Shown here: positions 13,138 to 33,874 of the stretch, piece by piece | Numbering within the stretch: the first letter of the stretch is position 1 | Layout of the letters: every line of letters begins with the position of its first letter | DNA from: an uncultured bacterium | GTDB lineage: Bacteria; Omnitrophota; Omnitrophia; Omnitrophales; Aquincolibacteriaceae | DNA length: 62,965 nucleotides | Direction of reading: 5' to 3' | NCBI GenBank assembly: GCA_964385615.1 | Contig: CAYLPP010000001.1 | Location: 38,220 to 101,184 of the forward strand | Translations under genes and position numbers: made by a program | The notes under the pieces: model-generated | What the model was told of the DNA's origin: nothing | The model's input: the letters and a program-made list of their open reading frames with translations, nothing else | Databases searched by the model: none

Positions 13138-13149
13138 GGCTTCAGAATG

Positions 13150-13175
13150 CCTTGGCGATGACTTTAAGTCTACAG
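13150..13175 (-). promoter_or_regulatory. C-box operator pair (GACTTTAAGTC-TACA-GACTATAAGTT)
   Basis: Two GACT-N3-AGTY palindromes separated by 4 bp, 13-38 bp upstream of the C-gene ATG. This matches the published GACT-N3-AGTC C-box architecture. Confidence 0.6.
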
Positions 13176-13420
13176 ACTATAAGTTACAATTCCATATCCA
13201 ACAATCGAGAGATCGATAAAAGTTGAAGAGTTTGCTAGAAAAAGGCCAGTCACAACTACAAATAAAAGAGAAACATATCCCCTTTCATAGCTACTCGCAC
13301 CTTTGAGATCCTAGTATAGACTGGGTTCTATCTGTCTACAGCACTAAAGGATATAACTAACTTTCTTATTATACCCGACGATAATTAGAATACTGATTTT
13401 AGCAAATGGAGGCTCTTTAA

Positions 13421-15504: not shown

Positions 15505-17342
15505 GATTGCTTCTTACATTGCTTTGAAGATATTTTAAGCCTATTAATTATTTCCGATATTTCAGGAGCCTCTAAAAAATCGTAGCCGTCGTAAATCCCC
15601 GAGATAATATCCCATGAGACCTTCTTTCCCTTTGCTCGAACTTTTGCAATCGCATTATCAATCTCAGAATCAATAGAGCTAGACGGATTATCTACCTTTA
15701 ACAAATAGTAACTTTCTTTCCTTTTTAAAAAATTAACCCCGATTATTTCTTTAGCCCAATTAGTAGCCTCTGAGATATAACCGTTTTTTAAAATTAGGGC
15801 AACCGCTATTCTGATTATGTGGGGATAATTAAGCCTACCTTCACGCTTAGCGGCCGCTTGCACATAAGCTGCAATTAATTGTTTTTCAAACAACTTCCTA
15901 TTAGTTAAACGCTCTGAAAAATTGTTACTTTTCTGAAAAGTCAAATAATAATCCCCCAAATAACTTCCAGACATAGCAAACCTCGCTTTGGAAGGAACCA
16001 CGGCCGGCAAAACAAGAGATACATCACGATATTGTAATTTAGCGTTTTCAAATCCGTAAATTAATGTATGCCAAGCATCGAGAGATAGCTGATTAAATGT
16101 TACAGTAAAATAACCATTTTCCTTTAGAACATCTGCAGTCGTATTTATTGCCCGAATTATATCAAGCTTGTATCTTTCCCATCTTTTATTACGGTCAGGG
16201 CTATCAGACACAACAATTTCGTCAGCATAGAAAGCAGGTGCTTTAAGCCAAGAGTTCCAAATTGCAGAGACCTCTAGATAGGGAACGCTGTCACCATAAG
16301 GCGGATCTGTAAATACATAACCAATTTTTCCATTAATTTTATATTGAAGCTTTTTAAGAACGTCCGAGCAGTTCCCATTTAATATTTGCGACTTTGCTTG
16401 GCTATTAAAGCTCTTTCTCTTAAGAGAACAAATAGCCGCTAGAGATTTTTTGAAGCGCACATCAAATGTCGCAACTGGATTAACTTCAAGATGCTTCTTT
16501 GCTATCCAAAAACCCGGAACAGACCAGGCAGGTCCCCCTGTAGTTAAACCATTTCGACTCGGAATAAGTCGACTCGCTTGCGTAGAAGTTGCGGTAAGCG
16601 TCAATAAAAAGAAGTTCCTAACAAGGTTGGAAGGAATTGAATGAATAAAATCAGCCATTACTGCCAAAGTCAAAAAAGCTCTTTTTGTATAAAAGCTACG
16701 AGTTGAAGTACCCTCATAACTTAATATCCGTTTATTTGTTAAAAAATTTTGATCATACTTATTTATATCGCTCTTTAAAAAACGCGTATCGGCGCGTTGA
16801 GACTTTGCAGTTTGCTCTTCTAGAATAGCTTTATCTTTATATTCTTTCCCACTTGAATCAGTAACAGAAATAACTCTCGTCGAATGAAGCGTGCCAATAT
16901 TTGCATTAATTCTCTTTCCGCACTTTTGGCACAAAGAGCCATTTACTTCTTGCACAAAGCCACATTCCTTGCATCGCAACACTATGATGTGAGTACAATG
17001 CCTAATTTGCACCCGCCCTAATGAATAAGCCGATTTCAGTTTCTCGGCTATTTTTTCTTGGAAGTCGCTGTATGTCTTCTCTAGCTCTCCTAATGAAACA
17101 TCGCGCAGGAGAACTTCCCCAATTAAGACAGCTACAGGATTGATGTCGATTCCAATACTATCTATACCTAACTTCAAAGATTCAATATTTACTACAGAGC
17201 TTCCGCAAAATGGATCTAAAACATAACTATCTGGGATTGCGTATTTTTTAATAAACTCTCTAACAACATTCGCTGGTTTTCGAGCCCAATATTTATGAAT
17301 TAAATACTCCGAATCGTGTGTTGATGCAGTAAAGATCTTCAT
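15477..17342 (-). CDS. DNA amino-methyltransferase (N6-A or N4-C), motif order X-I...IV, with internal zinc ribbon
   Basis: HKYWARKPANVV..VLDPFCGSSV (motifs X/I) at the N-terminus and FTDPPYGDSVPY (motif IV) ~300 aa later. CKECGF-x9-CQKCG lies between them. Confidence 0.8.
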   Translation of the reverse strand: MKIFTASTHDSEYLIHKYWARKPANVVREFIKKYAIPDSYVLDPFCGSSVVNIESLKLGIDSIGIDINPVAVLIGEVLLRDVSLGELEKTYSDFQEKIAEKLKSAYSLGRVQIRHCTHIIVLRCKECGFVQEVNGSLCQKCGKRINANIGTLHSTRVISVTDSSGKEYKDKAILEEQTAKSQRADTRFLKSDINKYDQNFLTNKRILSYEGTSTRSFYTKRAFLTLAVMADFIHSIPSNLVRNFFLLTLTATSTQASRLIPSRNGLTTGGPAWSVPGFWIAKKHLEVNPVATFDVRFKKSLAAICSLKRKSFNSQAKSQILNGNCSDVLKKLQYKINGKIGYVFTDPPYGDSVPYLEVSAIWNSWLKAPAFYADEIVVSDSPDRNKRWERYKLDIIRAINTTADVLKENGYFTVTFNQLSLDAWHTLIYGFENAKLQYRDVSLVLPAVVPSKARFAMSGSYLGDYYLTFQKSNNFSERLTNRKLFEKQLIAAYVQAAAKREGRLNYPHIIRIAVALILKNGYISEATNWAKEIIGVNFLKRKESYYLLKVDNPSSSIDSEIDNAIAKVRAKGKKVSWDIISGIYDGYDFLEAPEISEIINRLKISSKQCKKQSQESELLFK

Positions 17343-18607
17343 AGCTTTTTAAAAATTAAAATGAAATCGGAAAGAGAGATCCCAATTTTTTTTGCATTCC
17401 GCCTCTGGCTTGTAACCCATGATGCTTCTGTATATTTAGGCTTCCTTATAGCTATTTTGATTAAACTAAGAGGGTCTTTGGAAAGGTAATCTAGAAGTAA
17501 TTTTGTGGTTGGAATATGCTTATCATGAATCTTTGTATCACCCATCATAAGTGCAATAACCGCCCCTTTACGTAGCTGTTTTGAAAGGTTTTTAATTCCA
17601 TCGCCAAGATCAGCGACGTAAGCATCAACATTACCAGGCTTGCCAACCTTAAAAAACTCTCGTATTTCCTTCTTAGAAATATCTTTTCGATCGCAAGAAA
17701 GCCAGCCAAGCTCTAAAGAAAAAATGGTGCTAAACTTATAAACATTAAAATATGGCGGGTGACAGATCACTAAGGATATGTCTTTATTTGCTATATCGAG
17801 TGAGCGAAGATCTCGCAATTCAAATGACGGTGCTTTGAAATGTTTGGGTAATCTACTGATAGCTCCTATCGATTTTATAGCAGCTTTTTCAAAAAAATCC
17901 CACGGCTCTTCTTCGGCTGTTTCTACGTCTAAAAATAACCGCCCCTGCTGTGAAGTCGCCTTTGAAACCCTACGCAAAATTGATAAAAAACTAAGCAACA
18001 AAGCTTCTCTCATATCTCGATCTTTAATCTCGAGAACACAACTCAACAACCTTCTCAAATTGGTTACTGTTTCAGGTAAAAACCAATGGAATAGGCTTTT
18101 TTCTGGAATTAAAATGTCAGAGATTCTTATCTTGCCTCCACCTCTTTTCCGTTTATAAGAAAGTTTTACTGAATCAAGCGCTTTTATAAAATTATCTTTC
18201 TTAATCGGAGTACACTTTACTTTTGCTAGAAGAGCCGAAAGCGGGCTCACATCAGCACAAAAAATATTCCGGTTCAAATAAATACTTTCAACAGCTGTGG
18301 TTCCACTGCCAATTGTAGGATCAAGAATATTTTGATCTTTTTTGGAATATATTTGAATGAGATGCCTAGCTACAGGCGGTGGAAACTTCCCATAAAATCG
18401 AAATAAACCATGCGTCAAATAACTTAGCTCTTTAGATGAGTAATCTAAATTCCAAACCTCGGTTATAGATTTATATTTAGATAAGTCTGCAGCTCTAAGC
18501 AGTGCATTCTTGTATTCTTTATCAGCTGGATTAGAGGAAATTTCAACGGTTGGTAACAAGGCTTCGGTCATGCTGTGTATATTAGCAATGTACTTCTCAG
18601 GTTTCAA
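17339..18607 (-). CDS. Second DNA amino-methyltransferase-like protein (HPPY variant of motif IV)
   Basis: FYGKFPPPVARHLI..ILDPTIGSGTTAVES (motifs X/I), then VICHPPYFNVY. Overlaps the downstream MTase gene by 4 nt. Confidence 0.65.
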   Translation of the reverse strand: MKPEKYIANIHSMTEALLPTVEISSNPADKEYKNALLRAADLSKYKSITEVWNLDYSSKELSYLTHGLFRFYGKFPPPVARHLIQIYSKKDQNILDPTIGSGTTAVESIYLNRNIFCADVSPLSALLAKVKCTPIKKDNFIKALDSVKLSYKRKRGGGKIRISDILIPEKSLFHWFLPETVTNLRRLLSCVLEIKDRDMREALLLSFLSILRRVSKATSQQGRLFLDVETAEEEPWDFFEKAAIKSIGAISRLPKHFKAPSFELRDLRSLDIANKDISLVICHPPYFNVYKFSTIFSLELGWLSCDRKDISKKEIREFFKVGKPGNVDAYVADLGDGIKNLSKQLRKGAVIALMMGDTKIHDKHIPTTKLLLDYLSKDPLSLIKIAIRKPKYTEASWVTSQRRNAKKIGISLSDFILIFKKL

Positions 18608-18772
18608 GAATCCCCTTTTTGAAATATATGTCGGGCACCTGCATCGCTAGTTGAGAAGAGAGACAAGGCATGCTTTAAAATATCAAGTAAGCCTGTCATA
18701 TAAAAGTAGTTTCGCGGGAAATAGCCCGTAAAGTGCTGAAATCGCTCAACTCTAGTGGACTTCCTACGAAGA

Positions 18773-18894
18773 TTAACTTTTCCCCGCAAACCAGGACTTG
18801 AATTCAGGGCTTTGGGCGGTCGCGGGGCCAGACGTTGAAACACGGATAATGGCGTTGGGGCCTACATAGAAATAGCGCAGGCCGGACCCGGCGT
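18773..18894 (-). repeat. Direct-repeat copy A: displaced 3'-terminal fragment (last ~40 codons plus stop) of a homolog of CDS 19897-20595
   Basis: Hand alignment to 19897-20018 gives 122 bp with 6 mismatches. In the gene frame it reads ..AGSGLRYFYVGPNAIIRVSTSGPATAQSPEFKSWFAGKS*. Confidence 0.8.
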
Positions 18895-19043
18895 TTGAGC
18901 TCAGTGTAGGCGGCCATCATATCACAAGCAAGCGCTGGCCAACCACCGAGGATTCTTCGGTAGTTGAGTTGTTGCAGAAAATGCAACGGTTGATCCTTTT
19001 TGTGAATTTCCAGTATGTCCCAAAATGGAACTAACACCAGCTT

Positions 19044-20602: not shown

Positions 20603-23212
20603 TCATGAGACCAGCGCGGGCTCGAGAGCCGCGTTTTCCGCCAGCCAGGAAGAGGCTTCTTTGGAGCCCCGGGCGGTCCAGCGGATGTTGGACTGAATAA
20701 TTTCCAGCGACTGTTTCATGGTGCGCTCAATGCCGGCGATCGCGTTTTTCTTGAAAAACGCCTGCACGTCTTTGAGCTCAGCGGGTTTATTGAACCCGGT
20801 CACGGAGCCTTCAAAAATATGGCCCAGCATGGAAGCCACGCTTCCGCCTTCGTAGCGCCGGCGCAGTTCCTTCACGTTGGATTTATTGAAAGCCCAGGCC
20901 TGGTGGCGGGCAGTGCGGTTGGAGCCGAAACCGCCCAGAATGGCGTAGGTGTCCTGACTGCGCACTTCTTTTGAAAGCGCGAATTTCAGCACCTGAGCGA
21001 TCAAACCCTTTTCTTTGAAGCGGGTCAGCGAGCGCATGATCCGGACTTTTTCTTCATGCAGAGTTACGGTCTTGTAGAGTTTCAGTAGTTGGTCGAGCTC
21101 TTTTTGCCCGCCGTTTTCAGCCGTGATCGCGTAAACCGGCCCGCGCAGGTTCGGCTCAAGCTCGCCGGTCTTCACGTAATACTCAAACAGCGCCTTGGCT
21201 TCGTTGATAACTTCCGGCGCGCCGTAATGCCCGGCCTGCGAAATCAAGAGCGAGCGAAGCAGAAGGTCGGAGTGCGAGTCGGTGGATTTTTTCTCCCAGC
21301 CCAGCGATTTGAGGCAAGGCAGAAGAAGCGAGCGGGCAAAAGCGGAAAGACGCTCCCGGTCTTCTTCCTTATCCAGCAGATTATTAATCGAGCTCAAACT
21401 TCCCGAAACAATGCTCCAGATATTGTACTCACGCTCATTTTTAGCGGAGCTCAAAATCTGCAGAAGGCAGGAGGTTTTAAGGTAACCCGCGCGAGTCAGC
21501 GCGTGCGCGTCGCTTAAAATGCCCAGCGCGTCAATCACCGGATCAGGCAGGCTGCCCGATTCCAGCGCGTTCACCACACCGGCCAGCAATTCACCCGGAT
21601 AAGACGTGCGGTAAAAACCGCTCTGCCCGGCGTTGATCTTGACCCAATCGCTCTCCCCGCCCAAATCCACCACGGAGGAAGCCGATTTCAGCAGACCGAT
21701 AAAAGGTTTTTCCTGGCCCTGGCGCTGAATCACCAGCGGAATCTGCCAGCGGGTTTTCTTCGCGTCTTTGCTTCCGTCAAAAAGAAAACGTTCCTGGCTG
21801 AGTTTGAGTTTGCGCCCCTGGGCTTCAACTTTCAGCACCGGAAAGCCGGGCTGGCGGGTGTAGCCGTCCATAATGGCCTGCACGGGCTTGCCCGAAACCT
21901 GCTCCAGCACTTTCCAAAGATCGTTGGTGGAAGCGTTGCCGTAAGCAAACTTCTTAATATAAACACGCAAGCCTTTGCGGAAAACATCTTCGCCCAGGTA
22001 ATGCTCGAGCATCCGGTTGACCGAAGAGCCTTTGCTGTAAGTGATCGCGTCAAAAATTTCGCGGATCTCGGCCGGGTTCTGCACCGGGATTTCGATCGGG
22101 TGTGTGTTGCGAAGGGCGTCAGAGCCCAGCGCGCGCAGGTAATCGGCCACCACGAACTGATCCCAGATTTTCCATTCCGGGAACTGGTCGTGCACGGCTT
22201 TCGGGCCCATATAAGAAGCGAAGCCTTCGTTCAGCCAAAGGTCGGTCCACCATTCCATCGTGACCAGATTGCCGAACCATTGGTGCGCGAGCTCGTGGTC
22301 AATGACTTCGGCCACACGCTGGCGCGCCGCCGCGGAGGAATTTTGCGGGTCGACCAGCAAAGCGGTTTCGCGGTAAGTGATCAGGCCCCAGTTTTCCATG
22401 GCGCCGGAAGCAAAGTCAGGCAGAGCGACCATGTCGCACTTGGGAAGCGCGTATTGAATACCGAACCATTCGCCGAAATAAGGCAGGCAGTGCAAAGCGA
22501 CTTCGAGCGCGAAACGCCCCTGCTCTTTTTTGCCGGGCACGGTGTAAATGCGCACCAAAGTTCCGTTTTTGTCTTTGGCTTCAACATACTCCAGGTCCGC
22601 CACCACGATCGCCAGCAGATAAGTCGACATGACCGGAGAAATTTCATAATGGAGCTGTTTGAGACCGCCGGTTTTTTTCACGGTCTTTTCAACCGGCATA
22701 TTGGAAAGCGCGGTCAGGTGTTGAGGCACGATCACGGAAATCTTGAAGCAGGCTTTGGCGTCGGGCTCATCCCAGCACGGAAAGGCACGGCGCGCGTCGG
22801 TGGCTTCAAACTGAGTGGCCACGCCCCAGCGTTTCTCACCTTTTACGGTGTAGGCGGTGCGGTAAAAGCCGTGCATCTTGTCGTTGTGGATGCCTTCAAA
22901 TTCAACGCACAGGCAGTTGGCTTCGCCGGGTTTTACGGAACGGCCGAAATCAAACGTGGCGGTTTCGAATTTTTCGTTGTAGGAAATTTTTTTAGCTGGA
23001 AGATCGGCTTTGAGCTTGGCACCGCACAGCCAGGCTTTTTTGATTTTCAGTTCGGCGGAATGCAGGGTGATGGAAGAAAACGGTTTAACCGCTTTAAAAG
23101 TGACGGACTCTTTGCCCTGGAACGTGAATTTTTTAAGGTCGGGCTCGAAGGTGATGCTGTAAACAATGGGAGTGATGTTGCGGTCGAGACGGTAAGGATT
23201 TTTTTTTGCCAT
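20603..23212 (-). CDS. pepN: M1-family aminopeptidase N
   Basis: GAMENWG exopeptidase motif and HELAHQWFGNLVTMEWWTDLWLNEGFA (HExxH-x18-E). Long ERAP1-like C-terminal domain. Confidence 0.9.
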   Translation of the reverse strand: MAKKNPYRLDRNITPIVYSITFEPDLKKFTFQGKESVTFKAVKPFSSITLHSAELKIKKAWLCGAKLKADLPAKKISYNEKFETATFDFGRSVKPGEANCLCVEFEGIHNDKMHGFYRTAYTVKGEKRWGVATQFEATDARRAFPCWDEPDAKACFKISVIVPQHLTALSNMPVEKTVKKTGGLKQLHYEISPVMSTYLLAIVVADLEYVEAKDKNGTLVRIYTVPGKKEQGRFALEVALHCLPYFGEWFGIQYALPKCDMVALPDFASGAMENWGLITYRETALLVDPQNSSAAARQRVAEVIDHELAHQWFGNLVTMEWWTDLWLNEGFASYMGPKAVHDQFPEWKIWDQFVVADYLRALGSDALRNTHPIEIPVQNPAEIREIFDAITYSKGSSVNRMLEHYLGEDVFRKGLRVYIKKFAYGNASTNDLWKVLEQVSGKPVQAIMDGYTRQPGFPVLKVEAQGRKLKLSQERFLFDGSKDAKKTRWQIPLVIQRQGQEKPFIGLLKSASSVVDLGGESDWVKINAGQSGFYRTSYPGELLAGVVNALESGSLPDPVIDALGILSDAHALTRAGYLKTSCLLQILSSAKNEREYNIWSIVSGSLSSINNLLDKEEDRERLSAFARSLLLPCLKSLGWEKKSTDSHSDLLLRSLLISQAGHYGAPEVINEAKALFEYYVKTGELEPNLRGPVYAITAENGGQKELDQLLKLYKTVTLHEEKVRIMRSLTRFKEKGLIAQVLKFALSKEVRSQDTYAILGGFGSNRTARHQAWAFNKSNVKELRRRYEGGSVASMLGHIFEGSVTGFNKPAELKDVQAFFKKNAIAGIERTMKQSLEIIQSNIRWTARGSKEASSWLAENAALEPALVS

Positions 23213-23263: not shown

Positions 23264-24160
23264 CTATTTTTTGGGGTGGGATTTGAAGAAGTCCCAGATT
23301 CGGTCGGTGGCGGGCACGCCTTCATCCGCCGTAGGCCAGGCATGGTCGCCGTCTTCAATTGTGTAAAGCTCCACGGCCGTTGAATCACGGCAGTCCGCGT
23401 AAAGCTCCCGGTTCCAGCCGTCGCCAGCTTGGGTTTCGGGATCGGCCGGGCACTCGTCAAATTTTTTCCAGAAATTCACCGCGTAAGAAACCGGATGGTC
23501 GTATTTGCTCCCATAAATAACGGGGCTGTACCCGCCGTTATAAAGCACCTTGAGGTCGGCCGTGCCGTTAAAGGCCAGAATCGAAATGGGTTTTTCAGGA
23601 AGGCAGACACCGTTGAGCGCCCCGCTGACGGGTGCGACTGCCGCGAAAATATCTGAAGCTTCACAGGCGAGGCGATAAGCCAGAATCGCTCCGTTGGAAA
23701 AACCGGTGACGTAAATTCTCGAAGAATCGACCGGATATTCTTTTTGAAGTTTGCCGATCAGCGCGCGGATAAAACCCACATCGTCAATCTGAGCGGCGTC
23801 GGCGTAACCGCAGCAGTTACTGCCGTTCCAGGTCAGCTCACGGGTCGCTCCGGGAATTTCACTGGTGCCGTTAGGGTAAACCACGATAAATTTTTCATCT
23901 CGTGATTTTTCGGTAAATCCCGTCGCCTGTTCAACGGCGAAGGCATTGTCCAGCGCGCCGTGAAGCACCACAACGAGAGGAACCGGCTGATTCAGGTATT
24001 TGGCCTCAGGAGCATGAAGGTGGTAACTGCGCTGCTGACCCCCGTAAATCATCCGCTCGAGGTCATCGGCCCGGGCTGAGGGCGAAACCACGGTCAGGAA
24101 GAGCAGGATTAGAAGCCAATATCCGCGCGAACGCATGGCTAAAGGATAGCATGAAGGCAA
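23264..24160 (-). CDS. Secreted PHB-depolymerase-family esterase (LpqC/COG3509-like)
   Basis: Signal peptide. PLVVVLHGA, NCCGYA and VTGFSNGA (GxSxG) motifs. The true start may be the internal MRSRGYW. Confidence 0.7.
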   Translation of the reverse strand: MPSCYPLAMRSRGYWLLILLFLTVVSPSARADDLERMIYGGQQRSYHLHAPEAKYLNQPVPLVVVLHGALDNAFAVEQATGFTEKSRDEKFIVVYPNGTSEIPGATRELTWNGSNCCGYADAAQIDDVGFIRALIGKLQKEYPVDSSRIYVTGFSNGAILAYRLACEASDIFAAVAPVSGALNGVCLPEKPISILAFNGTADLKVLYNGGYSPVIYGSKYDHPVSYAVNFWKKFDECPADPETQAGDGWNRELYADCRDSTAVELYTIEDGDHAWPTADEGVPATDRIWDFFKSHPKK

Positions 24161-24218: not shown

Positions 24219-24602
24219 ATGAAACGTTTTCTTTCTATTTTTTCCGCTTTCGTCCTGCTCCTTTCAGCCTCACCCGTTTTTGCTTCTTATGAACAAACCC
24301 AGCGTTATGAACGGTTAGAGCCGCCCAATGCCATTGAGAAATACGGCATGAAGGTAGGCGAGAAATTCGATTTCGGGGTCCCGAATTTTTTGATGGGCTG
24401 GACGAATATTCTGACGGAACCGGGTCTCCACCGGAAAACTTCGGATTCCCGGGGGAAACAAGCTCTGTCGGTAACCGGAGGAGCTTTGATCGGCGTTGGG
24501 CTTTTTGTCGTCGATACGGTTGGAGGCGCGGTCAATATTCTGACTTCCCCCATTCCCGTCATCATTCCGCTTCCTCGAGGCGGAGTCAAAACGGCGCATT
24601 AA
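24219..24602 (+). CDS. Small secreted protein, possibly exosortase-system-associated TIGR04073-like
   Basis: 127 aa with a signal peptide. G.PNFLMGWTNILTEP resembles the G..N...GW.EIP core of that family from memory. Weak call. Confidence 0.4.
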   Translation: MKRFLSIFSAFVLLLSASPVFASYEQTQRYERLEPPNAIEKYGMKVGEKFDFGVPNFLMGWTNILTEPGLHRKTSDSRGKQALSVTGGALIGVGLFVVDTVGGAVNILTSPIPVIIPLPRGGVKTAH

Positions 24603-27600
24603 GCCGACCTTCCGAACGCCTGCATGGCCTGGAATGTGCGTGTGATCACGCGTTCGATCGCGAATTTCGAAACTCTGGCGATCGGTTTCTGAGAACCTGC
24701 CACCACAATCCGTCCCCTCGCCAGCTTCACGGCGCTGATCAACGCGCGGTCCACATACTTCCGGGCTTTTGAAGGCACGATCTGCGGATCGACAAACTGC
24801 ATGACCGCCGGCATCTCCAGGTTTTCCTGCTTCGCCTGGTAGCTGACAAAACTTTCCAGACTGCCGAAGCGGTCGTCGCCCACCAGCGAAACTTTACGGC
24901 CTGAAGCTTTCAATTTACGGATATCCCCGCCCAATGCTTTTTTCACGGCATCCCAGTCAGAGGCTGAAGTCGAGGGATCTTTGAAGATGACCAGGCTGAC
25001 TTCGCGCGGTTGAGATTCGACGCGGACCATCAAATTTTTCATAAATTCAAGGGAGTGATCCTCCGCGCGGTAGTCAAAAATAAACTGACCCCGGGTTCCC
25101 GTGAGCACTGCCGGAAACTTGGCTGCGATTCCCGTAGTTTCGGCGAAATTATCCAGCGCGCCCAGGAGATCGGCTCCCGCGCTTTCCGCCTGGAGAATCG
25201 TTTGAAGCATCATGTCTTGTTTGGCTTGAAGCGCCTGCCCGAGCTCCGTCCGCTGAAGGCGCAATTCAGATCTTGTCCGCTTGGGAATAAAAGAGAAGGA
25301 CCCCTTCATGCCCACATAGTAACGCCCTGAAGGTCCCGGCTGATAAACGTTGCGAGGTTCCGAAAGTTGGTAATCCGTGTACCCGGCATCCGTGAGCGCG
25401 TTGGTAACTATCGTCTTGATTACGGTGGAAAGTGTCGGCCCCGTGCTGCTTCCGCCGACAGGAAGTTCCCGTGTAAATTCAGGCTGAACTTCAGCGCGCA
25501 CCCGAAGCTCGCTCAATTTCCCGTTTTTAACCGCGTCCGCATTTTCCAAAATGATACCGCCAGGCGTCCAAAGCCCGCCGGTTCTCTTCGAAGGATTCCG
25601 GATAACCGGCCATTTAATCATGCTGGAAACCGCGGACTCAAATTCACCCGCCAAATCTTTAAGGAAAATATTTTTCCCTTCGCGGTTAACCGCTCTTAAA
25701 ACCGCGAGAACCGCCAGGCTTTGCTCAATTTCCATTTCGTAAGCGATCAAGTGAACCGCGACCTCCCGTGAAGGGCCCGCGTCTTGACGAAGGTACGCCA
25801 AGGTCACTAACCGCACGTACGCGTTGACCAGCCTGCGCTGGAGCTTTTCTTTTTCATCGCCGGCGCCGGCATTTTTTAAATTCCGTTTCAGCGCTTCCAC
25901 TTTTCTCCGAAGCGCGGCTTCAGTGGCTTTTGCCGACAGGCTTTGAAATTCCGCATCCTTCAGTTTTTCAAAAAGAGTTTTCAGCGACTGACTCTGATCT
26001 CTCAATTCGGAGCGCGGAGCCGCGTCGTCATCTCCGAACAGATCTTTTAAAAGATCCGCGGCCTCTGAAATAGCTTCCGGCGTTTCAGCTTCCGGATCAT
26101 TGTTGATTCCCAGAGAATTCAAATCCAGAGCCCCTGTGGGAACATCCTCGACAAGATCGCGGGATAATTCGCCCCCGTCCACAACCAGCGCTTCTTCCAA
26201 CGGCTCCTCAGAAAGACCGCGGGGAATCAAAGGGTCATGCGATTCTCCGTCATAAGATGGAGTGTCGCCAAGCGCGTCCGCGACAAGTGAAGGCGTCACC
26301 CCGGAGTTTCCGTCCACAGAACCCAGACGCAATTTCGAAACTTCCGCATCGGCCTCACCAAAAGAAGCCGCGGGCCTCAAAACTTTAGGAAGCTTTTGAA
26401 GATACGGAACAATGGCGTCCGCTCCATAAGGCTGTGCCGTCGTGTGCACCCCGGTTCCTCCGTGAGTCCGGTACCACACCCAGGCCACCACATAACTCCA
26501 GGGCCGGTACCAAACAGGCGTCGCGGCCGCGCGGGCAATGTGACTGGTTAAAACAAATCCGGCCAAAAGCTGTTTGAACGCGTCAACCGTGTCGCCGTAA
26601 ATTTCCTGAACAATCATGCGTTTCGACATATTTTCGGGAATGTGCGTGTCCGCGTCGGCCACAATATGCTTGTAGGCGCCTTTGGCCACACCCGGCGGAT
26701 TGGGATTACTGCTGATATGAAGAATGTAAGCGCCCGCCAGCGGGATTCCGAATAAATGCGAAAACGGAAAGAAAATCGAAAGAATGGTTTTGATCTGCCT
26801 GCCGATCATCACGACCGCGCTTTCCGTGTTTTCCTGAGCGGGCACACGGCCGTCACGGTTTAAGAGAATGATCCAGGTGGAACGGTCGCCGGAATGTTCA
26901 TCCAGCGCGCGGTAACTGTCGGTCGCGTGAACCGTCACGCCGTTGATGCCGTAGGCCTGGTTGAACATTTTGCGCATGGCAATCGCGAGCAGGTTGGCGA
27001 CATCACCGTTTTTGGAAACGATAATAATTTTCTTAATCCCCATCCGGTCCTGAACGGAGCGTTTATTGCCGTCAATCTGCTTGATCAGAAGCCTCCGAAG
27101 CAGGGGCAATACAGGCCCGGCCAGATGAATATAAAGAAGCGCGTCCATGACCCCGGGAATAAACAAAATTCCGGTAATAACCGCGACCAGGGTGGTCGTG
27201 CGGGCAAAGACTTTAGCGGCAAACCGTTTGGAAACGGGATGCTTGGAAGAAACCATCGCGATCACTTTTCGAACGAGGTAAAAAATCAGCGCGGCGCCGT
27301 AAAAAAACGCGGCAATTCCGGCCAGGACATACCAAGCTCCAAATTGCGCGGCCAGCGGAAAAAGCAAATGATTCAATGCCGTAAAAAGGGGCGAAATCGC
27401 GACACCCGCGGACGGCAGGGCTACCGTAATAAAAATGTAAGCGGCCGCAAGCACCCAAACATCGACAGACTCGTTAATGCGCCGGCCCATGGAAAGGCCT
27501 TCTTCCGCGAGGTTTTTAGCATCCGGAACATCCGTGTCTCCCAATTTGCCTTTTTGAGTGAACCCTGTAATGTTAGGAATACTGGAAGTTAAAAATTCGT

Positions 27601-30600
27601 CGCGGTGCCGTTCGATTTCTTTCAAATCGTCGGCCTCATACCGGCGGTCAAACAAACGCTCACCGGGAAATTTCTCGACAGCCGCACGAGTCAGATAAAG
27701 TCCCATCTCCAAAAAGGTGAGCCGTGTCGCGGCAGTCGCGGCCACGTGAACTTCAGCCGGGCTCCATCCGCTTCGGATCAGAAAAGTACGGCGGGGGCCG
27801 ACATCGTCAGCCATCGGACTGTTAATATCCGCGGTAATGACAAACACTTCGGGAATCATGCGCACAAGCAAAGTCGTGCTGACGGCGGAAGGAAAAGTCT
27901 GGCCTGATTCTCCGCTTCCCAACGCGACCACGAAGGGGTTAATCAGTCCCAAGCGGTGCTTGAGACGTTCAATATCCATTTCAGGAAGGCGCTGACTGGC
28001 ATCTTCTTCTGAACGCGTTGCCAGCTCGGCTTCTTCAAGGATGTGGTTCGGCTCGAGCATTACAATTTCAAGGTCCGGCAGCATTTTTTTGAAAAAAATC
28101 ATCCAATCATTAAAATGCTCCTCGTTTTTCTCTTTCCCATAAAGAACGATATCGGGCCCTTTGATTTCCAGCGGAAGAACCGGTTTGAGAAAACGCTGCT
28201 GCATCCGGTAAAGATCACGTCTTTTCTGCTCTTCATCTTTCCCCGCGGCCTGATTGATAGCCGAAATCAATTCCGCGTGAGGAATTGTATCCAGCTCCTG
28301 CTCCGCGTAACGGGCCCCCTGTTCCAGAACCCCCTGGTTTTCAGACTCCAAATTGAAGTACCCCTCCAAAAGTTCGAACACGGCGCTGTTAATGCGCTCC
28401 GCTAATTCGGACGGAGGGAAATCGCCCCGAATCAGCCCGGAAGAGACCTCATACCCGGCTTTCAGCACCGCATCCATAAATTGCTTTTCAGTTAAGGAAG
28501 CGAGCACCCGTCTGCGGTAAAGCTCAGTCAAAAATTTTTCAGCGGTCAGAAGCTCTTCCGTGTAATTCACTCCGTCATCTTCGCCGATAATCTCACGGGC
28601 TTTGGAAGCCGCCCATTGTTTCAAAACTGGTTTCAGGTAACTGCGTTCGAGCGCCTGGCGGACCCCGTTAAGAATACGCTTCCCGACCGGATTGCGAAAA
28701 AGCACGGACGCAAACTCCTGAGCAACGTGCGGGTTGTGGGGCTTGGGAACTTCCCGTGTCGGAGTCCCCTCCCATTCTTTTTGAACCACTTCCAGATAGC
28801 GCGGTAATTTGCGGTGTTCCGCTTCGATCGGATCTCTCTTCTCTTCGGCTGAAAGCGGAATAAAAGGCGTTACATCCTTGATACGTCCTCTTTCCATCAG
28901 TTGTTGAAGATTCAATTCTTCGCCGGTGGAAAGCGAATAAACCCGGATACTGATAACGCCATTTTCATAACTGACCTCCGCGACTTCACCCAGAGGATCC
29001 AGTTTGAGAATGTGCTGATACCCCTCGACCCGGGCCGCGTTTCTTTCTGAAAATGACCCAACCTGCAGAAGGCCGTCTTTAACGCCGAAACCGATATAAA
29101 TCGGTGAAATCAGCGAAACCGCGACCAGTTTATTCACGGAGCTCGGAGAATACGCGTTAATACCGGCTGAACCGCGGAAATTGATCATGATACTTTTCCA
29201 GACATTGTAAGAATCATTTTTAAAGAAAGCTTCCACCGCGGTCCGGATGAATCTCTCCGTTTTTTGAGGACCCCAGCCATTAAAAAGCCTGATGGCAAGC
29301 GGCTGCGCCGCCTCCGCCGTATGGATTTCAGCCAGAAAAAGTTTCTGAAGGCCTTGAATCGTCTTAGCGTCCACTTTGGCCAAGTCGGGAAAGCGCGAAA
29401 GAATTTCGACCCCCCCGTGTTTTTGAAAAGCCGTTTCGAGGAATTTTGAAAGCGCCTGCTCTTCCGCGGGTGTTAGACTGGTGTCAGGCGCCGTAAGTTC
29501 GGCTTCCGCGCTTTCAGGAATTTTTCCGCCGAAATATTCCTTAAAATCCTCAACCACAGCTTCATCGTAAGCCAGACGCGGAACTTTTTTCCAATCCCCC
29601 TGAACGAGGCGAAGATCAAATTCACCCGCGGCCTTGGGAGAATCGCCCGTCGTGTTGTTGGCTTTCTTCAGAACCCGTTTCAGCCTCCAGCCCACCAGGT
29701 CGTTGCTATAGCGCTTTCCTTTGTGGACGAGATAATCGAAATCGCCATTGTGCGTGATCGCGTTGATCCCAAGCCACTGGTGCGGATGGGCGCCGGCTTC
29801 GATTTCTTCGACATAGGTATCTTTTTCAAGCGCTCCGCCGGTCGGCCAGCGAAGGTGCACGCCGATCATTAGCCGGGAGGGATACCCTACCGAAGAAACC
29901 GCGGCGCGGACCTTTTTGGAAAAATCCAGAAACGCGTCAAGTGCCTGCTGGCGTTTCCAGATGATATATTTTTCAAGAAGCACTTTTTTTCTGCCGTTCG
30001 ACCCTTCCACGACCGCGTAAAAACCCATGGAAATTTTCCCGCGGACTTCGGTAATCATAATGCTCTGACCCAGACGGCTGAGATACGCTTCCATATCTTT
30101 TGAATTTTTCATTTCCCCCTGAATACTGGCGTTACCGCAGCGCAATTCGGAACGTGAAGCCGGTTTCGGCATTTTCTCGGAACCAATCACGGTACTGCTG
30201 TCCTTCCCGCTGATCCGCCGATAAAGCTTAAGCCCAAGCGCTTGAGCTCCCGCTTTAGAAAAGCCGGACAAACCGCTTTTCATTCTAGCCGTGAGTTTGC
30301 GAAGCATCTCCAGCGCGCGGGCAGGTGAAAGCAAAACGCTTAAAATAAAAGTTTCCCCCAGAAATTCAGAACGGTAAACTGCTTCGGGTTTTTCCTGATC
30401 CGGCTGGCCGACTTCCGTCAGGGCTTCATCCCTCGCGGGTTCAATACGGATTTGCATGACTGGTTTTTCCTGGTTTTCCGGGCGCAGTGAAAAAACCGGC
30501 TCATCTTTTTCCGGCGTCACATAAATGGTGGCGTAAGGCGGAAGCTTCACCCCGACGGCTTCAAACATAGTGCTGACAGGCACGCGCTGGCCTTCCGCGT

Positions 30601-32932
30601 TTCTAGCGTTATGCAGAAGGTTATCCAAACGGTTCAGCTCAGGTGTGTAAGCGCGGAGATTCCAGGTCATATTGGTTTTTCCAGTCGCCCGGACTTCAGT
30701 GACCAGTTTCTGGGGATCCTTAATCCGAAGAACGAAATTCTTACGGCCCTGCGGAGTTTCAAAAACCATATGGTAAACACGCTGAGTGCTGACCTGCCCG
30801 GGTTCCAGTTTTCCGGTTTTCGTTCCGTCTTCGAGCACGTGATGCGCCCGGATAAAAAACCGGTTCGCGAACGTGATTCCTTCGTTTTTTAGCGCGTCAA
30901 AAATCTGCGCGCGAAACTTATCAACCGCTGATCCCATGAGAAAAAGCAAATCATCGTCCGGCGTTCTTTCAGGGCTATAGATCATTTTTGAAAAATCAGA
31001 AATCCTGGGAAGATTGCCGGCCGTTTCAGCCGTTCTCGCTTCAGAGCGGGCCGTGGACAGACTTCCCGTCTTTTCCCGGCGCGCGTTCAGTTTCGTCTCC
31101 AGCATGGCGCGGTCATCAGGATCCGCGAGACCGATTTCAACGGAAATCCCGTCACTCATGAGCGCGCGGGCTTCGGCGCGAAGAACCAGATTCCGGTCGC
31201 GTTTTTTCTCCGCGTGCCAATAGCCTTTAATGGAGATCTGAGCCGTACCGAGGGGCTGGGTCATCAGCACCCCCGTATTTCCGTCCAGATAATAGAAGCC
31301 GGGATTGCTCACGGCTGAAAAAAGAGGCGCGAACTGCTCTTCCCCTTTAAAACGGACATTCATCTGAATCCTGGCGGACGGAATTCTTTCACCCTCAAGA
31401 CGCAGAGCGTTGACCGCGTTTAAAACCGCGCCGCTAAGCGCCAGACCCAAACGGCGGTTTTGAACTAATTCTCTAAAATCAAAATTCGTAACGGCTCCAG
31501 CCGGAATTTTCGCGAGATCATCCACAGTCGGGAAACCGGAAGGCGGATTCAGCTGAAACCGGGGATCCTGAACCGGAGACTTCAGCAGAACTGTCATCGG
31601 CGCTCCGTCAATCGCCATCGCTTTGTAATATTTTTCGCGGTCTTCGGCTTCGTCAATTTTATTGCCCGCCGCGGGCATAATGACGATGTAGGAATAACCG
31701 CTTTTCTGCAGAGCTTTCTCAATGCCGGGCGTATGAAACCCGCCGGTAATTAAAACCGACTGATTTTGTCCGCGGTCCTTCATATCTTTCATAGCGTTTT
31801 CAACAAGCGCCTGATCACGTTTCAGCGCGAGAGAATAGAAATTTTCCATCAGCGGAAGGTCGCGGTCGAGAAAAGAAAGGTCCGGAAGAACTTCGCTGAA
31901 ACCATACTGCCTAAGCATTCCGCTCAGCTCGGCTTTAAAGGGGCGGGCTTTAAAAGAACCCGGGTGATTGTAAAAAAACTCCGCGTCTTCTTTGGTCCAG
32001 GCCAGCTGAAAAAGTTTTTCATAAATACTAAGAACCCGGAAAAGACCGTCAAGCTTACGGGCCTCTTCAGTGATTAAAAGTTTTTCGCGAAGTTTTTCCT
32101 CGGCTCCGCTCATTTCATCAAAAATATCCAGCCCCAGCGAAGCCGTCATGCGCTCAGCTTTCTTACCGCTTTCCTTAGCTTCAGACAAAGCCGCGAGATT
32201 CCGGATTTGCGGATAATCCCCTTCAACGCCGTTCTGGTCCAGCAAGTCGCGCAAAAACCGCACGTAAGAAGCAAAACCATGCCCATCTTCCCGGAAACCC
32301 CGCTCCATCTGGCGGAGCTTGCGGTAATTATCGGGAAACATAAATCTGGAAACGTCGTCCATTTTTGTGCGAACCTGAATTAGAATCGGTAGATCCCGTT
32401 TCTGAATTTCAAGCGTGCGCATGAAAATATCGCGGTTGGATTGGTAAAGCCCCCTGTCTTCAACCCCATGAAGCACCAGATCGGGAGAACCGGTCAACGC
32501 TTCGTATTCCGGACCGGTGATCAAGCCTTCGCGGAGAAAATAATCAGCGGTCAGCGCGCGGGCTTCTTTATTAGGGTGAGAAGAAACAAATTGATGCCAA
32601 ATCTCCCCCGTTGAGCCTTCCGTGTGAACCAGTCCGATACCGTGCCGGCTTTTGAGATATCCCAAAATCCCGGCGATATGCTGTTGAATTTCAAGATTTG
32701 AGTGCGCGTCCTGAATATGAACGACCAGCCCGCGCCCATTCCCCTGGTGAAACGATTTTATTTTCCCCAAATTTCCCGGCAGGTCTTTTTGAATTAATGA
32801 AGATGCGTCAGACGGCGAGCTGAGGGGGAAATTCAGCTCAGCCGCCTGCGCATTTTGAGTCACAAGAAAACAAATCAAAACCAGACCTCCGATCACCCGG
32901 AATCCCAGCTTGTTCTTTTTAATGTGACTCAT
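24599..32932 (-). CDS. Giant 2,777-aa signal-anchored multidomain protein with an expanded, TM-interrupted GlmS-like core (class-II amidotransferase + two SIS-like halves)
   Basis: Uninterrupted ORF with a GGGGGA RBS 7 nt upstream. N-terminal hydrophobic signal. GlmS-like motifs at aa ~932-2170 (see findings). About 4-5 hydrophobic helices at aa ~1824-1945 and ~2050-2073. Confidence 0.85.
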   Translation of the reverse strand: MSHIKKNKLGFRVIGGLVLICFLVTQNAQAAELNFPLSSPSDASSLIQKDLPGNLGKIKSFHQGNGRGLVVHIQDAHSNLEIQQHIAGILGYLKSRHGIGLVHTEGSTGEIWHQFVSSHPNKEARALTADYFLREGLITGPEYEALTGSPDLVLHGVEDRGLYQSNRDIFMRTLEIQKRDLPILIQVRTKMDDVSRFMFPDNYRKLRQMERGFREDGHGFASYVRFLRDLLDQNGVEGDYPQIRNLAALSEAKESGKKAERMTASLGLDIFDEMSGAEEKLREKLLITEEARKLDGLFRVLSIYEKLFQLAWTKEDAEFFYNHPGSFKARPFKAELSGMLRQYGFSEVLPDLSFLDRDLPLMENFYSLALKRDQALVENAMKDMKDRGQNQSVLITGGFHTPGIEKALQKSGYSYIVIMPAAGNKIDEAEDREKYYKAMAIDGAPMTVLLKSPVQDPRFQLNPPSGFPTVDDLAKIPAGAVTNFDFRELVQNRRLGLALSGAVLNAVNALRLEGERIPSARIQMNVRFKGEEQFAPLFSAVSNPGFYYLDGNTGVLMTQPLGTAQISIKGYWHAEKKRDRNLVLRAEARALMSDGISVEIGLADPDDRAMLETKLNARREKTGSLSTARSEARTAETAGNLPRISDFSKMIYSPERTPDDDLLFLMGSAVDKFRAQIFDALKNEGITFANRFFIRAHHVLEDGTKTGKLEPGQVSTQRVYHMVFETPQGRKNFVLRIKDPQKLVTEVRATGKTNMTWNLRAYTPELNRLDNLLHNARNAEGQRVPVSTMFEAVGVKLPPYATIYVTPEKDEPVFSLRPENQEKPVMQIRIEPARDEALTEVGQPDQEKPEAVYRSEFLGETFILSVLLSPARALEMLRKLTARMKSGLSGFSKAGAQALGLKLYRRISGKDSSTVIGSEKMPKPASRSELRCGNASIQGEMKNSKDMEAYLSRLGQSIMITEVRGKISMGFYAVVEGSNGRKKVLLEKYIIWKRQQALDAFLDFSKKVRAAVSSVGYPSRLMIGVHLRWPTGGALEKDTYVEEIEAGAHPHQWLGINAITHNGDFDYLVHKGKRYSNDLVGWRLKRVLKKANNTTGDSPKAAGEFDLRLVQGDWKKVPRLAYDEAVVEDFKEYFGGKIPESAEAELTAPDTSLTPAEEQALSKFLETAFQKHGGVEILSRFPDLAKVDAKTIQGLQKLFLAEIHTAEAAQPLAIRLFNGWGPQKTERFIRTAVEAFFKNDSYNVWKSIMINFRGSAGINAYSPSSVNKLVAVSLISPIYIGFGVKDGLLQVGSFSERNAARVEGYQHILKLDPLGEVAEVSYENGVISIRVYSLSTGEELNLQQLMERGRIKDVTPFIPLSAEEKRDPIEAEHRKLPRYLEVVQKEWEGTPTREVPKPHNPHVAQEFASVLFRNPVGKRILNGVRQALERSYLKPVLKQWAASKAREIIGEDDGVNYTEELLTAEKFLTELYRRRVLASLTEKQFMDAVLKAGYEVSSGLIRGDFPPSELAERINSAVFELLEGYFNLESENQGVLEQGARYAEQELDTIPHAELISAINQAAGKDEEQKRRDLYRMQQRFLKPVLPLEIKGPDIVLYGKEKNEEHFNDWMIFFKKMLPDLEIVMLEPNHILEEAELATRSEEDASQRLPEMDIERLKHRLGLINPFVVALGSGESGQTFPSAVSTTLLVRMIPEVFVITADINSPMADDVGPRRTFLIRSGWSPAEVHVAATAATRLTFLEMGLYLTRAAVEKFPGERLFDRRYEADDLKEIERHRDEFLTSSIPNITGFTQKGKLGDTDVPDAKNLAEEGLSMGRRINESVDVWVLAAAYIFITVALPSAGVAISPLFTALNHLLFPLAAQFGAWYVLAGIAAFFYGAALIFYLVRKVIAMVSSKHPVSKRFAAKVFARTTTLVAVITGILFIPGVMDALLYIHLAGPVLPLLRRLLIKQIDGNKRSVQDRMGIKKIIIVSKNGDVANLLAIAMRKMFNQAYGINGVTVHATDSYRALDEHSGDRSTWIILLNRDGRVPAQENTESAVVMIGRQIKTILSIFFPFSHLFGIPLAGAYILHISSNPNPPGVAKGAYKHIVADADTHIPENMSKRMIVQEIYGDTVDAFKQLLAGFVLTSHIARAAATPVWYRPWSYVVAWVWYRTHGGTGVHTTAQPYGADAIVPYLQKLPKVLRPAASFGEADAEVSKLRLGSVDGNSGVTPSLVADALGDTPSYDGESHDPLIPRGLSEEPLEEALVVDGGELSRDLVEDVPTGALDLNSLGINNDPEAETPEAISEAADLLKDLFGDDDAAPRSELRDQSQSLKTLFEKLKDAEFQSLSAKATEAALRRKVEALKRNLKNAGAGDEKEKLQRRLVNAYVRLVTLAYLRQDAGPSREVAVHLIAYEMEIEQSLAVLAVLRAVNREGKNIFLKDLAGEFESAVSSMIKWPVIRNPSKRTGGLWTPGGIILENADAVKNGKLSELRVRAEVQPEFTRELPVGGSSTGPTLSTVIKTIVTNALTDAGYTDYQLSEPRNVYQPGPSGRYYVGMKGSFSFIPKRTRSELRLQRTELGQALQAKQDMMLQTILQAESAGADLLGALDNFAETTGIAAKFPAVLTGTRGQFIFDYRAEDHSLEFMKNLMVRVESQPREVSLVIFKDPSTSASDWDAVKKALGGDIRKLKASGRKVSLVGDDRFGSLESFVSYQAKQENLEMPAVMQFVDPQIVPSKARKYVDRALISAVKLARGRIVVAGSQKPIARVSKFAIERVITRTFQAMQAFGRSA

Positions 32933-33076: not shown

Positions 33077-33874
33077 CTAATTTTTGATTTCTTGCGACAA
33101 AATCACGGCCTCCGCGACCTGGCGGATAGGAATGCGCTTCTCCATACTGCGCTTTTGCAGCATCCGATGCGCTTCCGGCTCTTCGATCTTGTGCTGTTTC
33201 ATCAAAATGCCTTTGGCCCTCTCTACTTTTTTACGCGTTTCGAGTTCCTCAACAGCCGTAACCTTTTCGGTCAACAGCCGGGAATTTTCAATCGCAAGCG
33301 CGGCTTGACTGGCAACCGCCATCAAAACCTGCGTGTCTTCTTTTGAAAAATCACGCTCTGCTTCCGTGTAACAGTTTAAAACACCGATGGCCCGATTCTT
33401 CGTCATCAAAGGAACGCACACCAGCGATTTCAAATTTTCAGTCTTGGCCAGTTCTTTATATTTGTAAGCCGGCTCCAAAGTCACGTCACGCACGACCACA
33501 GGCTGTTTTTCAAGCAGTGCCCGTCCGCTCACGCTTTCACCGACTTTCACGGGAGGTTTGCGCCGGTAATCGTCGCTCAAACTCTGAGTCGCGCGAATCA
33601 CCAACTGCTGTTTTTCTTCGTCCAGTATCATGAGTGAACAAATTTTTGATCCCATAAGCTCCGCGGTCATCCCCACAATGAGAAATAAAACTTCTTCGAG
33701 GTAGCGGTCTGAAGAAATCGCCCGGCTGACGTTATAGAGCAGCTCGAAACTTTTTTTGGCCTTCTCTTCATCTTTGGCTCCTGAACTTTCCATTTTCAAT
33801 GTGACAAGCTTGTTAAAAACTACATTTTTGTCAGCTTGCCTTCTACCCTCGAAGGTTAGTGCTGCGTTGCACAC
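33077..33874 (-). CDS. GAF-ANTAR RNA-binding antitermination regulator
   Basis: GAF-like N-terminal region. C-terminal RKKVERAKGILMKQHKIEEPEAHRMLQKRSMEKRIPIRQVAEAVI is the ANTAR pattern. The start is uncertain (GTG 33874 or ATG 33793). Confidence 0.8.
   Translation of the reverse strand: MCNAALTFEGRRQADKNVVFNKLVTLKMESSGAKDEEKAKKSFELLYNVSRAISSDRYLEEVLFLIVGMTAELMGSKICSLMILDEEKQQLVIRATQSLSDDYRRKPPVKVGESVSGRALLEKQPVVVRDVTLEPAYKYKELAKTENLKSLVCVPLMTKNRAIGVLNCYTEAERDFSKEDTQVLMAVASQAALAIENSRLLTEKVTAVEELETRKKVERAKGILMKQHKIEEPEAHRMLQKRSMEKRIPIRQVAEAVILSQEIKN

Follow-up and report, generated by a model that had tools for sequence, protein, structure and literature searches.

A recurrent pentapeptide marks the module borders of giant Omnitrophota proteins and suggests their processing as polyproteins

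Results

Layout of the giant protein

The DNA analyzed here is a stretch of 62,965 nucleotides from an uncultured bacterium of the Omnitrophota (GenBank assembly GCA_964385615.1, contig CAYLPP010000001.1, positions 38,220 to 101,184 of the forward strand), which is called the window in the following. A giant open reading frame (ORF) on its minus strand (24599..32932, stop codon included) encodes a protein of 2,777 amino acids (aa), termed P0001, and is a candidate polyprotein gene. An initial annotation had noted that the pentapeptide RSELR and its variants recur at domain junctions of this protein and had proposed that the chain is cut there. Searches of Pfam, NCBIfam and, with single sequences, the PDB yielded nothing usable for the whole protein or for eight segments of it. 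A word-indexed protein search was employed, which yielded a full-length ortholog (P0002) from an independent sample, with 57% identity and the same architecture, together with more than 100 proteins of 1.6-4.9 thousand aa (kaa). Where the source names these relatives, nearly all of them belong to Candidatus Omnitrophota. They have only the first ~500 residues in common with the query, and their remainder consists of very diverse enzyme domains, including phosphoglucomutase, phosphoglucose isomerase (PGI), enolase, SecA, kinases, GT2, pyruvate phosphate dikinase (PPDK) and others.

Local searches cut the window protein into an N-terminal domain (N-domain), module X, a GlmS-like module (aa 932-2306), module Y and a C-terminal domain; all coordinates given for parts of the protein refer to the minus strand. 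Residues 1-31 (32840..32932), judged by inspection and a hydropathy scan, combine a basic start, a hydrophobic stretch and the sequence AQA/AE, and look like a Sec signal peptide or signal anchor. The conserved N-domain follows (aa 32 to ~520, 31373..32839) and was found in 119 of 119 homologs. Homologous blocks of module X (aa 634-926, 30155..31033), whose C-terminal end is a linker rich in Ser, Pro and Lys, are present in P0002, P0003, P0121, P0124, P0130 and P0140. Module X is missing from the relative P0125, in which the motif behind the N-domain runs straight into the sequence CGN. Module Y (aa 2312-2553, 25274..25999) was matched only by the ortholog P0002 among the sequences compared. 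These homology blocks coincide with the segments 1-633, 634-931, 932-2311, 2312-2558 and 2559-2777 into which the initial annotation had divided the protein at its motif copies. The chain contains only two cysteines, Cys21 in the signal-peptide-like N-terminus and Cys932, which excludes an internal cysteine protease. This depletion of cysteine in a 2,777-aa protein is extreme and notable in itself.

Four junction sites in the window protein

Six motif copies had been listed initially, and the coordinates were right for all of them: RSELR three times, RSEAR at aa 629, RAEAR at aa 585-589 and SELR at aa 2474-2477. Alignment with P0002 retained four of the six as junction sites. Site 1 is RSEAR (aa 629-633, 31034..31048), and the ortholog has RSESR at the aligned place. 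Site 2 is RSELR in both proteins (aa 927-931, 30140..30154) and directly abuts Cys932. Site 3 (RSELR, aa 2307-2311, 26000..26014) lies within an indel-rich, unalignable linker, in which P0002 also has RSELR. Site 4 (RSELR, aa 2554-2558, 25259..25273), located just before the C-terminal domain, is RSEAR in P0002. The other two copies were discarded as sites: RAEAR 585 is part of a strongly conserved block and is RTEAR in the ortholog, and SELR 2474 is EEIR there. Around all four sites the residues are divergent and full of indels in comparison with P0002, while the motif itself is kept. Sites 1, 3 and 4 are followed by T, D and L, respectively.

Based on the composition of the protein, 0.0063 copies of RSELR are expected, and the probability of three or more copies is ~4e-8. 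As a correction for the post hoc choice of the word, residue shuffles were searched for any 5-mer present at least three times, which occurred in 35 of 5,000 shuffles (p ~0.007). The pattern R[SAT]E[LAVIM]R was detected in this reading frame only when the whole 63-kb window was translated in six frames. All three RSELR copies encode Glu-Leu as GAA-TTG.

The motif in the Omnitrophota family

A scan of relatives for enrichment of RSE[LA]R had been suggested by the initial annotation. In the set of 120 homologs (365 kaa), the pattern RSExR was found in 138 copies compared with 7.1 expected, and it proved to be the most over-represented of all patterns that recur within proteins. The copies are distributed over 35 homologs, 27 of which contain two or more, and position 4 is almost always occupied by L, V, M, A or I. 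Exact RSELR is present 13 times in P0107 and 10 times each in P0114 and P0108. In most relatives of the RSExR type, the first motif is located 530-790 aa from the N-terminus, just past the N-domain.

The flanks of the RSExR copies are unrelated to each other and are not conserved. Analysis of 157 sites revealed 28.3% hydrophobic residues in the flanks compared with 33.0% +/- 0.6% at random positions, which is ~8 standard deviations lower. Small residues are preferred next to these sites, with A, V, S, P and T at position -1 and S, N, T and A at position +1, where C occurs in four cases, and Pro is enriched at +3/+4. No motif copy was detected inside a Pfam domain wherever such domains could be placed. 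Flank composition, the drop in identity between orthologs and the avoidance of Pfam domains serve as proxies here and suggest that the sites lie in exposed or flexible linkers. Several recognizable domains begin shortly behind a site: two REC domains in P0108 start 6 aa past one, a MraZ domain 4 aa and a HAD domain 20 aa past one, and 2-hydroxyacid dehydrogenases start with ...VLIVAD just past a site. A GNAT domain occupies the 188-aa fragment between two sites. The minimal form of the family is represented by P0125, which consists of the N-domain, RSEVR, a GlmS-like module, RSEMR and the C-terminal domain; compared with it, the window protein has two extra modules and exactly two extra motif copies.

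The codons used at 21 sites in three genes were also compared, and every synonymous codon family of Arg, Ser, Leu and Glu is in use. The 13 RSELR sites of P0107 employ 6 Arg, 5 Leu, 4 Ser and 2 Glu codons, and the ortholog P0002 has CTC, CTG and GAG where the window gene has TTG and GAA. This diversity indicates that selection acts on the peptide. Site density in the family ORFs is 1.27 per 1,000 aa (14 loci of RSExR-type genomes), and neighboring ORFs, which amount to ~42,000 aa, contain zero sites when five matches are disregarded that fall in two large ORFs truncated by contig ends. Of these two ORFs, one is an incomplete family member, and the second is probably one, too.

The pentapeptide marks module borders as a family-wide junction motif at the level of the protein. 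The initial annotation had named computational findings that would speak against its interpretation, such as lack of the motif in orthologs or its location inside well-packed domains. All of these were looked for and none was obtained: the motif is kept in P0002, it is recurrent in relatives, and it is found in divergent, hydrophobic-poor linkers.

Cys932 and the GlmS-like module

The whole GlmS-like module (aa 932-2306, 26015..30139) is collinear with stand-alone proteins of ~1,075 aa. Its first part (aa 932-1400, 28733..30139) was identified as a class-II, or N-terminal nucleophile (Ntn), glutamine amidotransferase domain with a helical insertion. An exhaustive representative search yielded 140 relatives of this part, 12 of which were aligned (alignment A2). 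Cys932 (30137..30139), the predicted N-terminal nucleophile, is the invariant column 1 of A2, and C1, G2, R33-G34, H95/R97/T100, H130-N131-G132 and D166-S167 are all invariant; beyond the first two columns they correspond to R964-G965, H1026/R1028/T1031, H1061-N1062-G1063 and D1097-S1098 of the window protein. The hallmarks of GlmS are present in these columns, namely the Arg-Gly pair (R26-G27), the H-x-R-x-x-T motif, the H-N-G oxyanion-hole motif and the D-S glutamine-binding motif, whereby the equivalence to named GlmS residues follows the PDB profile alignment together with what is known of GlmS.

Comparison of the A2 profile with PDB sequences retrieved only GlmS/GFAT glutaminase domains (E 6e-7 to 1e-5), followed weakly by PurF, and profile position 1 falls on the catalytic Cys of GlmS/GFAT. 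An AlphaFold2 (AF2) model of aa 932-1400, with a predicted local distance difference test score (pLDDT) of 85, gave the same picture in Foldseek: GlmS/GFAT structures were matched best (E 1e-9 to 1e-7, prob 1.0; template modeling score 0.72 to the isolated glutaminase domain 1xff) and PurF came next (E ~1e-5), which supports the four-layer alpha-beta-beta-alpha fold of Ntn hydrolases. Curated GATase models of Pfam and NCBIfam did not match the protein, the segment or ten homologs. The amidotransferase is a divergent subfamily that is detectable only via profile comparison with PDB sequences and via its fold. The initial assignment of Cys932 to Cys1 of GlmS holds in the A2 alignment, the PDB profile and the Foldseek matches as well as in the starts of stand-alone relatives, and these data show that Cys932 is the Cys1 equivalent of a GlmS-type Ntn amidotransferase.

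The residues preceding this Cys were examined in 73 relatives with the CGN...RG signature. Seven of the 73 are stand-alone proteins that start with M/V-CGN. In four candidate polyproteins, namely the window protein P0001, P0002, P0121 and the 35%-identical P0125, the sequence is RSE[LV]R/CGN without a spacer, and in all four the conserved GVY-type segment that precedes the Cys elsewhere is swapped for the motif. As no spacer separates the motif from Cys932, a specific scissile bond can be predicted, RSExR/C.

Residues 2-937 of the stand-alone protein P0190 align with residues 932-2137 of the window protein in three collinear blocks. A hydropathy scan revealed hydrophobic, transmembrane-like segments at aa 1821-1937, and the module ends in an acidic, poorly conserved tail (aa ~2190-2306), with low identity to the ortholog at 2191-2340. 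A combination of the Ntn amidotransferase domain with hydrophobic transmembrane-like segments is found throughout the GlmS-like subfamily (P0122-P0259), many members of which have a conserved internal ...G[VI][YF][CHY]/CGN junction that suggests self-processing. The label 'SIS' for aa ~1600-1800 was considered and is not claimed, as it is based on motif resemblance only; when the SIS-like region of a relative was compared with the PDB as a single sequence, no match was obtained.

The C-terminal domain

The conserved C-terminal domain (aa 2559-2777, 24602..25258) was found in 18 proteins by jackhmmer. It ends exactly at the C-terminus of the protein in all but two of them and has a conserved final Ser-Ala (Ala-Ala in one member). 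No informative match was obtained for it in Pfam and PDB searches. RSExR is located shortly upstream, at a variable distance, in 15 of the 18 proteins including the window protein, and the other three domains are preceded by RKSEVR, RKELR or RAEHR. The sequence upstream of this motif is unrelated among the 18 proteins. The domain could be a sorting or recognition tail.

Substitute pentapeptides in other lineages

Homologs without RSExR often carry another strict recurring pentapeptide that is used in a similar manner. [AS]SS[AL]G is present 13 times in P0060, and ASS[LA]G 4-5 times in P0083 and P0101. GAR[ML]A takes this place in other members, with 11 copies in P0049 (as GARMA), five in P0067, and eight and four in two paralogs of one genome. 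RDTAMQ (five copies) and AGFGA (four copies) were found in further family members. Substitute words were also noted in P0057 and P0043 and at the loci L073 and L076. Often, ASSLG is located just past the N-domain and ~230-260 aa before the C-terminus, and the sites of substitute words likewise avoid Pfam domains. The motif has been replaced by other pentapeptides in a lineage-specific manner.

Two proteins of one genome, P0020 and P0107, both use RSELR only, although their N-domains are just 22% identical. The nearest neighbors by N-domain belong to the same motif class in 29 of 30 cases, which fits cis- and trans-acting specificity alike. The word drifts between lineages, yet within one genome it is uniform; co-evolution of a protease with its sites would produce such a pattern.

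The N-domain and candidate proteases

A recognized protease domain was not detected in the window protein by Pfam, NCBIfam and PDB searches with the whole protein and its segments. The N-domain was examined further. Across the 21 sequences of alignment A1, Q74, H77, Q83, E105, R372, G397, G398 and H400 are invariant, with H77 being part of HIQDAH (72-77) and H400 part of TGGFHT. The core of its AF2 model has pLDDT values of mostly 84-97. Foldseek returned weak matches (E 0.2-1.6), with EreC at ranks 1-2 (E 0.2-0.36, prob 0.3), HopBA1 at rank 14 and ChaN at rank 37. A Pfam search with the N-domain of the window protein itself gave no match, while weak signals were obtained for PF04187 ('Tiki superfamily, ChaN') in two of the 21 members (best E 1.6e-4) and for PF05139 in one of 21 (E 0.06). 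With its alpha/beta core, a ...H motif towards the N-terminus, a conserved Glu, an Arg and a GGxH motif towards the C-terminus, the N-domain may be related to the Tiki/TraB-PrgY/ChaN/erythromycin-esterase superfamily; the scores for the window protein are below significance, and model residues ~133-360 (about aa 160-390) form a large helical insertion. The invariant H77, E105, R372 and H400 would be candidates for the His, Glu, Arg and His of the catalytic constellation of that superfamily. The N-domain is read here as a divergent superfamily member. Tiki itself acts as a metalloprotease, and esterases and haem binders belong to the superfamily as well. That the processing protease is the family's own Tiki/ChaN/Ere-like N-domain, acting in cis or in trans, is put forward tentatively as the leading possibility, which we nevertheless regard with some doubt.

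A co-occurring protease had been proposed as a further clue in the initial annotation; comparison of the neighborhoods did not bring one to light, as no protease gene is conserved beside the family genes. An M1 aminopeptidase encoded in the window and an M24 peptidase encoded near P0107 were considered as dedicated protease and rejected, as they are not conserved between loci.

The N-domain is encoded at no fewer than 577 loci (at least 577) in species-representative genomes, nearly all of them Omnitrophota, and also occurs in the form of stand-alone proteins of 440-580 aa. Stand-alone genes of 440-520 aa at the loci L074, L078, L047, L050, L075 and L043 are embedded in a conserved housekeeping gene order, which consists of EngA, PlsY, a helicase, a 929-aa TIM-domain protein, the N-domain gene, an unknown gene, TrpB, TrpA, ManC and an M16 peptidase. 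No functional clue was obtained from these neighborhoods, which represent ordinary housekeeping synteny. The genome JAHIPS has at least four copies of the stand-alone gene. Furthermore, an ORF of 8,777 aa that is located 8 kb downstream of P0107 starts with an N-domain (L002 31542-33092; IIHIQDAH ... VTGGFHSEG), so that the family extends into the 'giant gene' size range.

Gene neighborhood

The giant gene is directly preceded by the gene of a GAF-ANTAR regulator (33077-33874, minus strand) and is followed downstream by an esterase gene (23264-24160) on the same strand. Both recur at the ortholog locus (L001) and are the only genes common to the two neighborhoods. After the esterase, the M1 aminopeptidase is encoded (20603-23212, minus strand); the ortholog contig ends before the comparable position. 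Positions 12000-19000 of the window form an island of low GC content (37-44% compared with ~51%). An SRA-domain protein is encoded there at 12221-12913, two ORFs at 15477-17342 and 17339-18607 resemble N6/N4 DNA methylases, and further ORFs are unannotated. Most likely, these genes were acquired as a restriction-modification or defence island. A 1,074-aa ORF at 55016-58240 on the minus strand has no Pfam match and stands outside the N-domain family.

Discussion

We consider it fairly probable that the giant ORF encodes a bacterial polyprotein that is cut immediately after the final Arg of the motif. The interpretation given in the initial annotation is supported by the present analysis. The protein would be composed, in this order, of a signal-peptide-like N-terminus, the N-domain, module X, a GlmS-like Ntn-amidotransferase/membrane module, module Y and the C-terminal domain, with one copy of RSE[LVMIA]R in a presumably flexible linker at each junction. 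The motif would most likely be recognized by a lineage-specific endoprotease, which would cut RSExR/X and thereby release the modules. At site 2, the cut would create the free alpha-amino group of Cys932 that is needed for class-II amidotransferase catalysis. Motif cleavage, the exact scissile bond and the identity of the protease are inferred from the features of the sequences.

Several observations weigh against this interpretation. RSExR is present in only 35 of the 120 homologs, and many homologs have no recognizable recurrent motif. In many amidotransferase relatives, the junction is an internal ...GVY[CH]/CGN that lacks the motif, and ...FY/CGN and ...LL/CGN are found as well; these proteins presumably obtain the free Cys1 by a different route, such as Ntn self-processing, or do not always need it. 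The N-domain is only weakly linked to the Tiki/ChaN/Ere superfamily (Foldseek E 0.2-1.6, Pfam signals in 3/21 members), that superfamily includes non-proteases, and no protease gene conserved next to the family genes was found at the loci compared. A putative Sec-type signal peptide ahead of normally cytoplasmic enzymes is odd.

The motif may also remain uncut, and the giant protein would then work as one chain. In this case a chaperone, a factor of translocation or assembly or a modifying enzyme could dock at the motif or recognize it, or the motif could simply be a structurally favored linker. A strict short motif in linkers suits any sequence-specific binder equally well, the protease search did not yield a candidate conserved beside the family genes, and West-Roberts et al. 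leave the cleavage of giant Omnitrophota proteins open. Nevertheless, an uncleaved element hardly explains why the motif abuts the Ntn Cys in four proteins and why stand-alone homologs start at this very position. The substitute motifs RSELR, ASSLG and GARMA have no modifiable residue in common, and the arrangement of one motif per border, close to where REC, MraZ and dehydrogenase domains naturally begin, fits the release of modules. A single uncleaved chain is regarded as unlikely. A further explanation concerns site 2, at which Cys932 could be exposed by Ntn self-processing through an N-to-S acyl shift of the kind that has been proposed for other Ntn hydrolases and for the PurF propeptide, with RSELR playing no part in activation. 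Self-processing of Ntn hydrolases is established knowledge, and the dozens of relatives with internal GVY-, FY- or LL-type junctions and no motif suggest that a motif-independent route exists. This mechanism is distinctly unlikely to be the answer here, as it covers neither the other three sites nor the 130-plus sites in relatives, and as the GVY-type segment is replaced by the motif in all four abutting proteins, as if one activation route had been exchanged for another.

The recurrence could also reflect a signal in DNA or RNA, such as the recombination footprint of cassette shuffling, RNA processing or translational recoding, and the identical GAA-TTG codons for Glu-Leu in the three RSELR copies of the window would be in agreement with it. 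This is very improbable, since it is contradicted by the codon diversity in P0107 and P0002 and by the variation of position 4 among L, V, M, I and A. Chance, composition or remnants of duplicated linkers are hardly credible as an explanation. The shuffles, in which 0.7% contained some 5-mer three times or more, imply that the single protein taken alone is only moderately significant; conservation in the ortholog, the 19-fold enrichment in the family, the unrelated flanks and the agreement between independent samples contradict a chance origin.

Cleavage at the junction motif would have parallels in known systems. In viral polyproteins (the sites of picornavirus 3C, potyvirus NIa-Pro and coronavirus Mpro/PLpro), several enzymes are likewise contained in one long ORF, and a short strict motif that differs by lineage is located at module borders in exposed linkers, as it appears to be here. 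Unlike them, the Omnitrophota ORF is a bacterial chromosomal gene near pentose-phosphate, cytochrome bd and TonB-receptor genes, a recognizable 3C-like, papain-like or other known protease domain is missing, the modules are metabolic or housekeeping in nature, and cleavage is predicted from sequence. MARTX and large clostridial toxins are effector arrays that are freed when their own cysteine protease domain cuts after Leu in the linkers between domains. They resemble the Omnitrophota protein as giant proteins with unrelated enzyme modules, flexible linkers and a simple site, and with an export signal, which the Omnitrophota protein also appears to have. However, a C80 cysteine protease domain was not found by Pfam in the Omnitrophota protein and would be impossible with C21 and C932 as the only cysteines; RTX repeats are lacking, the site is a five-residue word instead of a single Leu, and the modules are housekeeping-like and not toxins. 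Bacillus subtilis PurF is a class-II amidotransferase whose catalytic Cys becomes residue 1 by removal of the preceding sequence. In PurF 11 residues precede the Cys, compared with 931 in the window protein, and unlike in PurF the string before Cys932 is a junction motif that is also used at non-Ntn borders. The presence of the same motif at Ntn and non-Ntn borders argues for a general endoprotease rather than for self-processing alone.

A predatory or parasitic lifestyle is assumed for the Omnitrophota, and their giant ORFs, which are a hallmark of the phylum, were described as poorly understood by Seymour et al., who do not discuss cleavage (PMC10066038). Giant Omnitrophota proteins with embedded glycolytic enzymes were reported in 2023 by West-Roberts et al., in the one paper found to address cleavage; the authors speculate that C39/S8 domains might cut these proteins and point to a lack of information about where the cuts would lie (bioRxiv 10.1101/2023.11.21.568195). 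The 'Archaeovorins' of that study come from the same phylum and also have embedded glycolytic and PPDK-type domains and signal peptides. In comparison, the proteins analyzed here are 1.6-4.9 kaa in size and have a different N-domain and an explicit candidate site, and C39/S8 domains are not invoked. A literature search did not retrieve a description of the motif, as RSELR was mentioned only in unrelated contexts, and no match was obtained for Omnitrophota in combination with polyprotein. Within the literature searched, the junction motif and its lineage-specific variants are new.

Conclusions

The strict, lineage-specific pentapeptide provides concrete and testable candidate cut sites for giant proteins. 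These sites allow the giants to be split for structure prediction and annotation and mature N-termini to be predicted, and the question of whether giant bacterial proteins are one chain or polyproteins becomes answerable by experiment. If cleavage proves true, the proteins would be a cellular counterpart of viral polyprotein expression that covers metabolic enzymes, and a new pair of protease and site, possibly of use as a tool, would be at hand. As a speculative extension that we rate as possible rather than probable, the Omnitrophota may possess a phylum-wide polyprotein system of hundreds of genes (the 577 or more loci), with a Tiki-like N-terminal protease, arrays of enzymes of housekeeping or effector type, a common C-terminal domain and a five-residue site that co-evolves with the protease by lineage (RSELR, ASSLG, GARMA). 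In such an RNA-virus-like system, processing would also activate enzymes, for example the Ntn amidotransferase.

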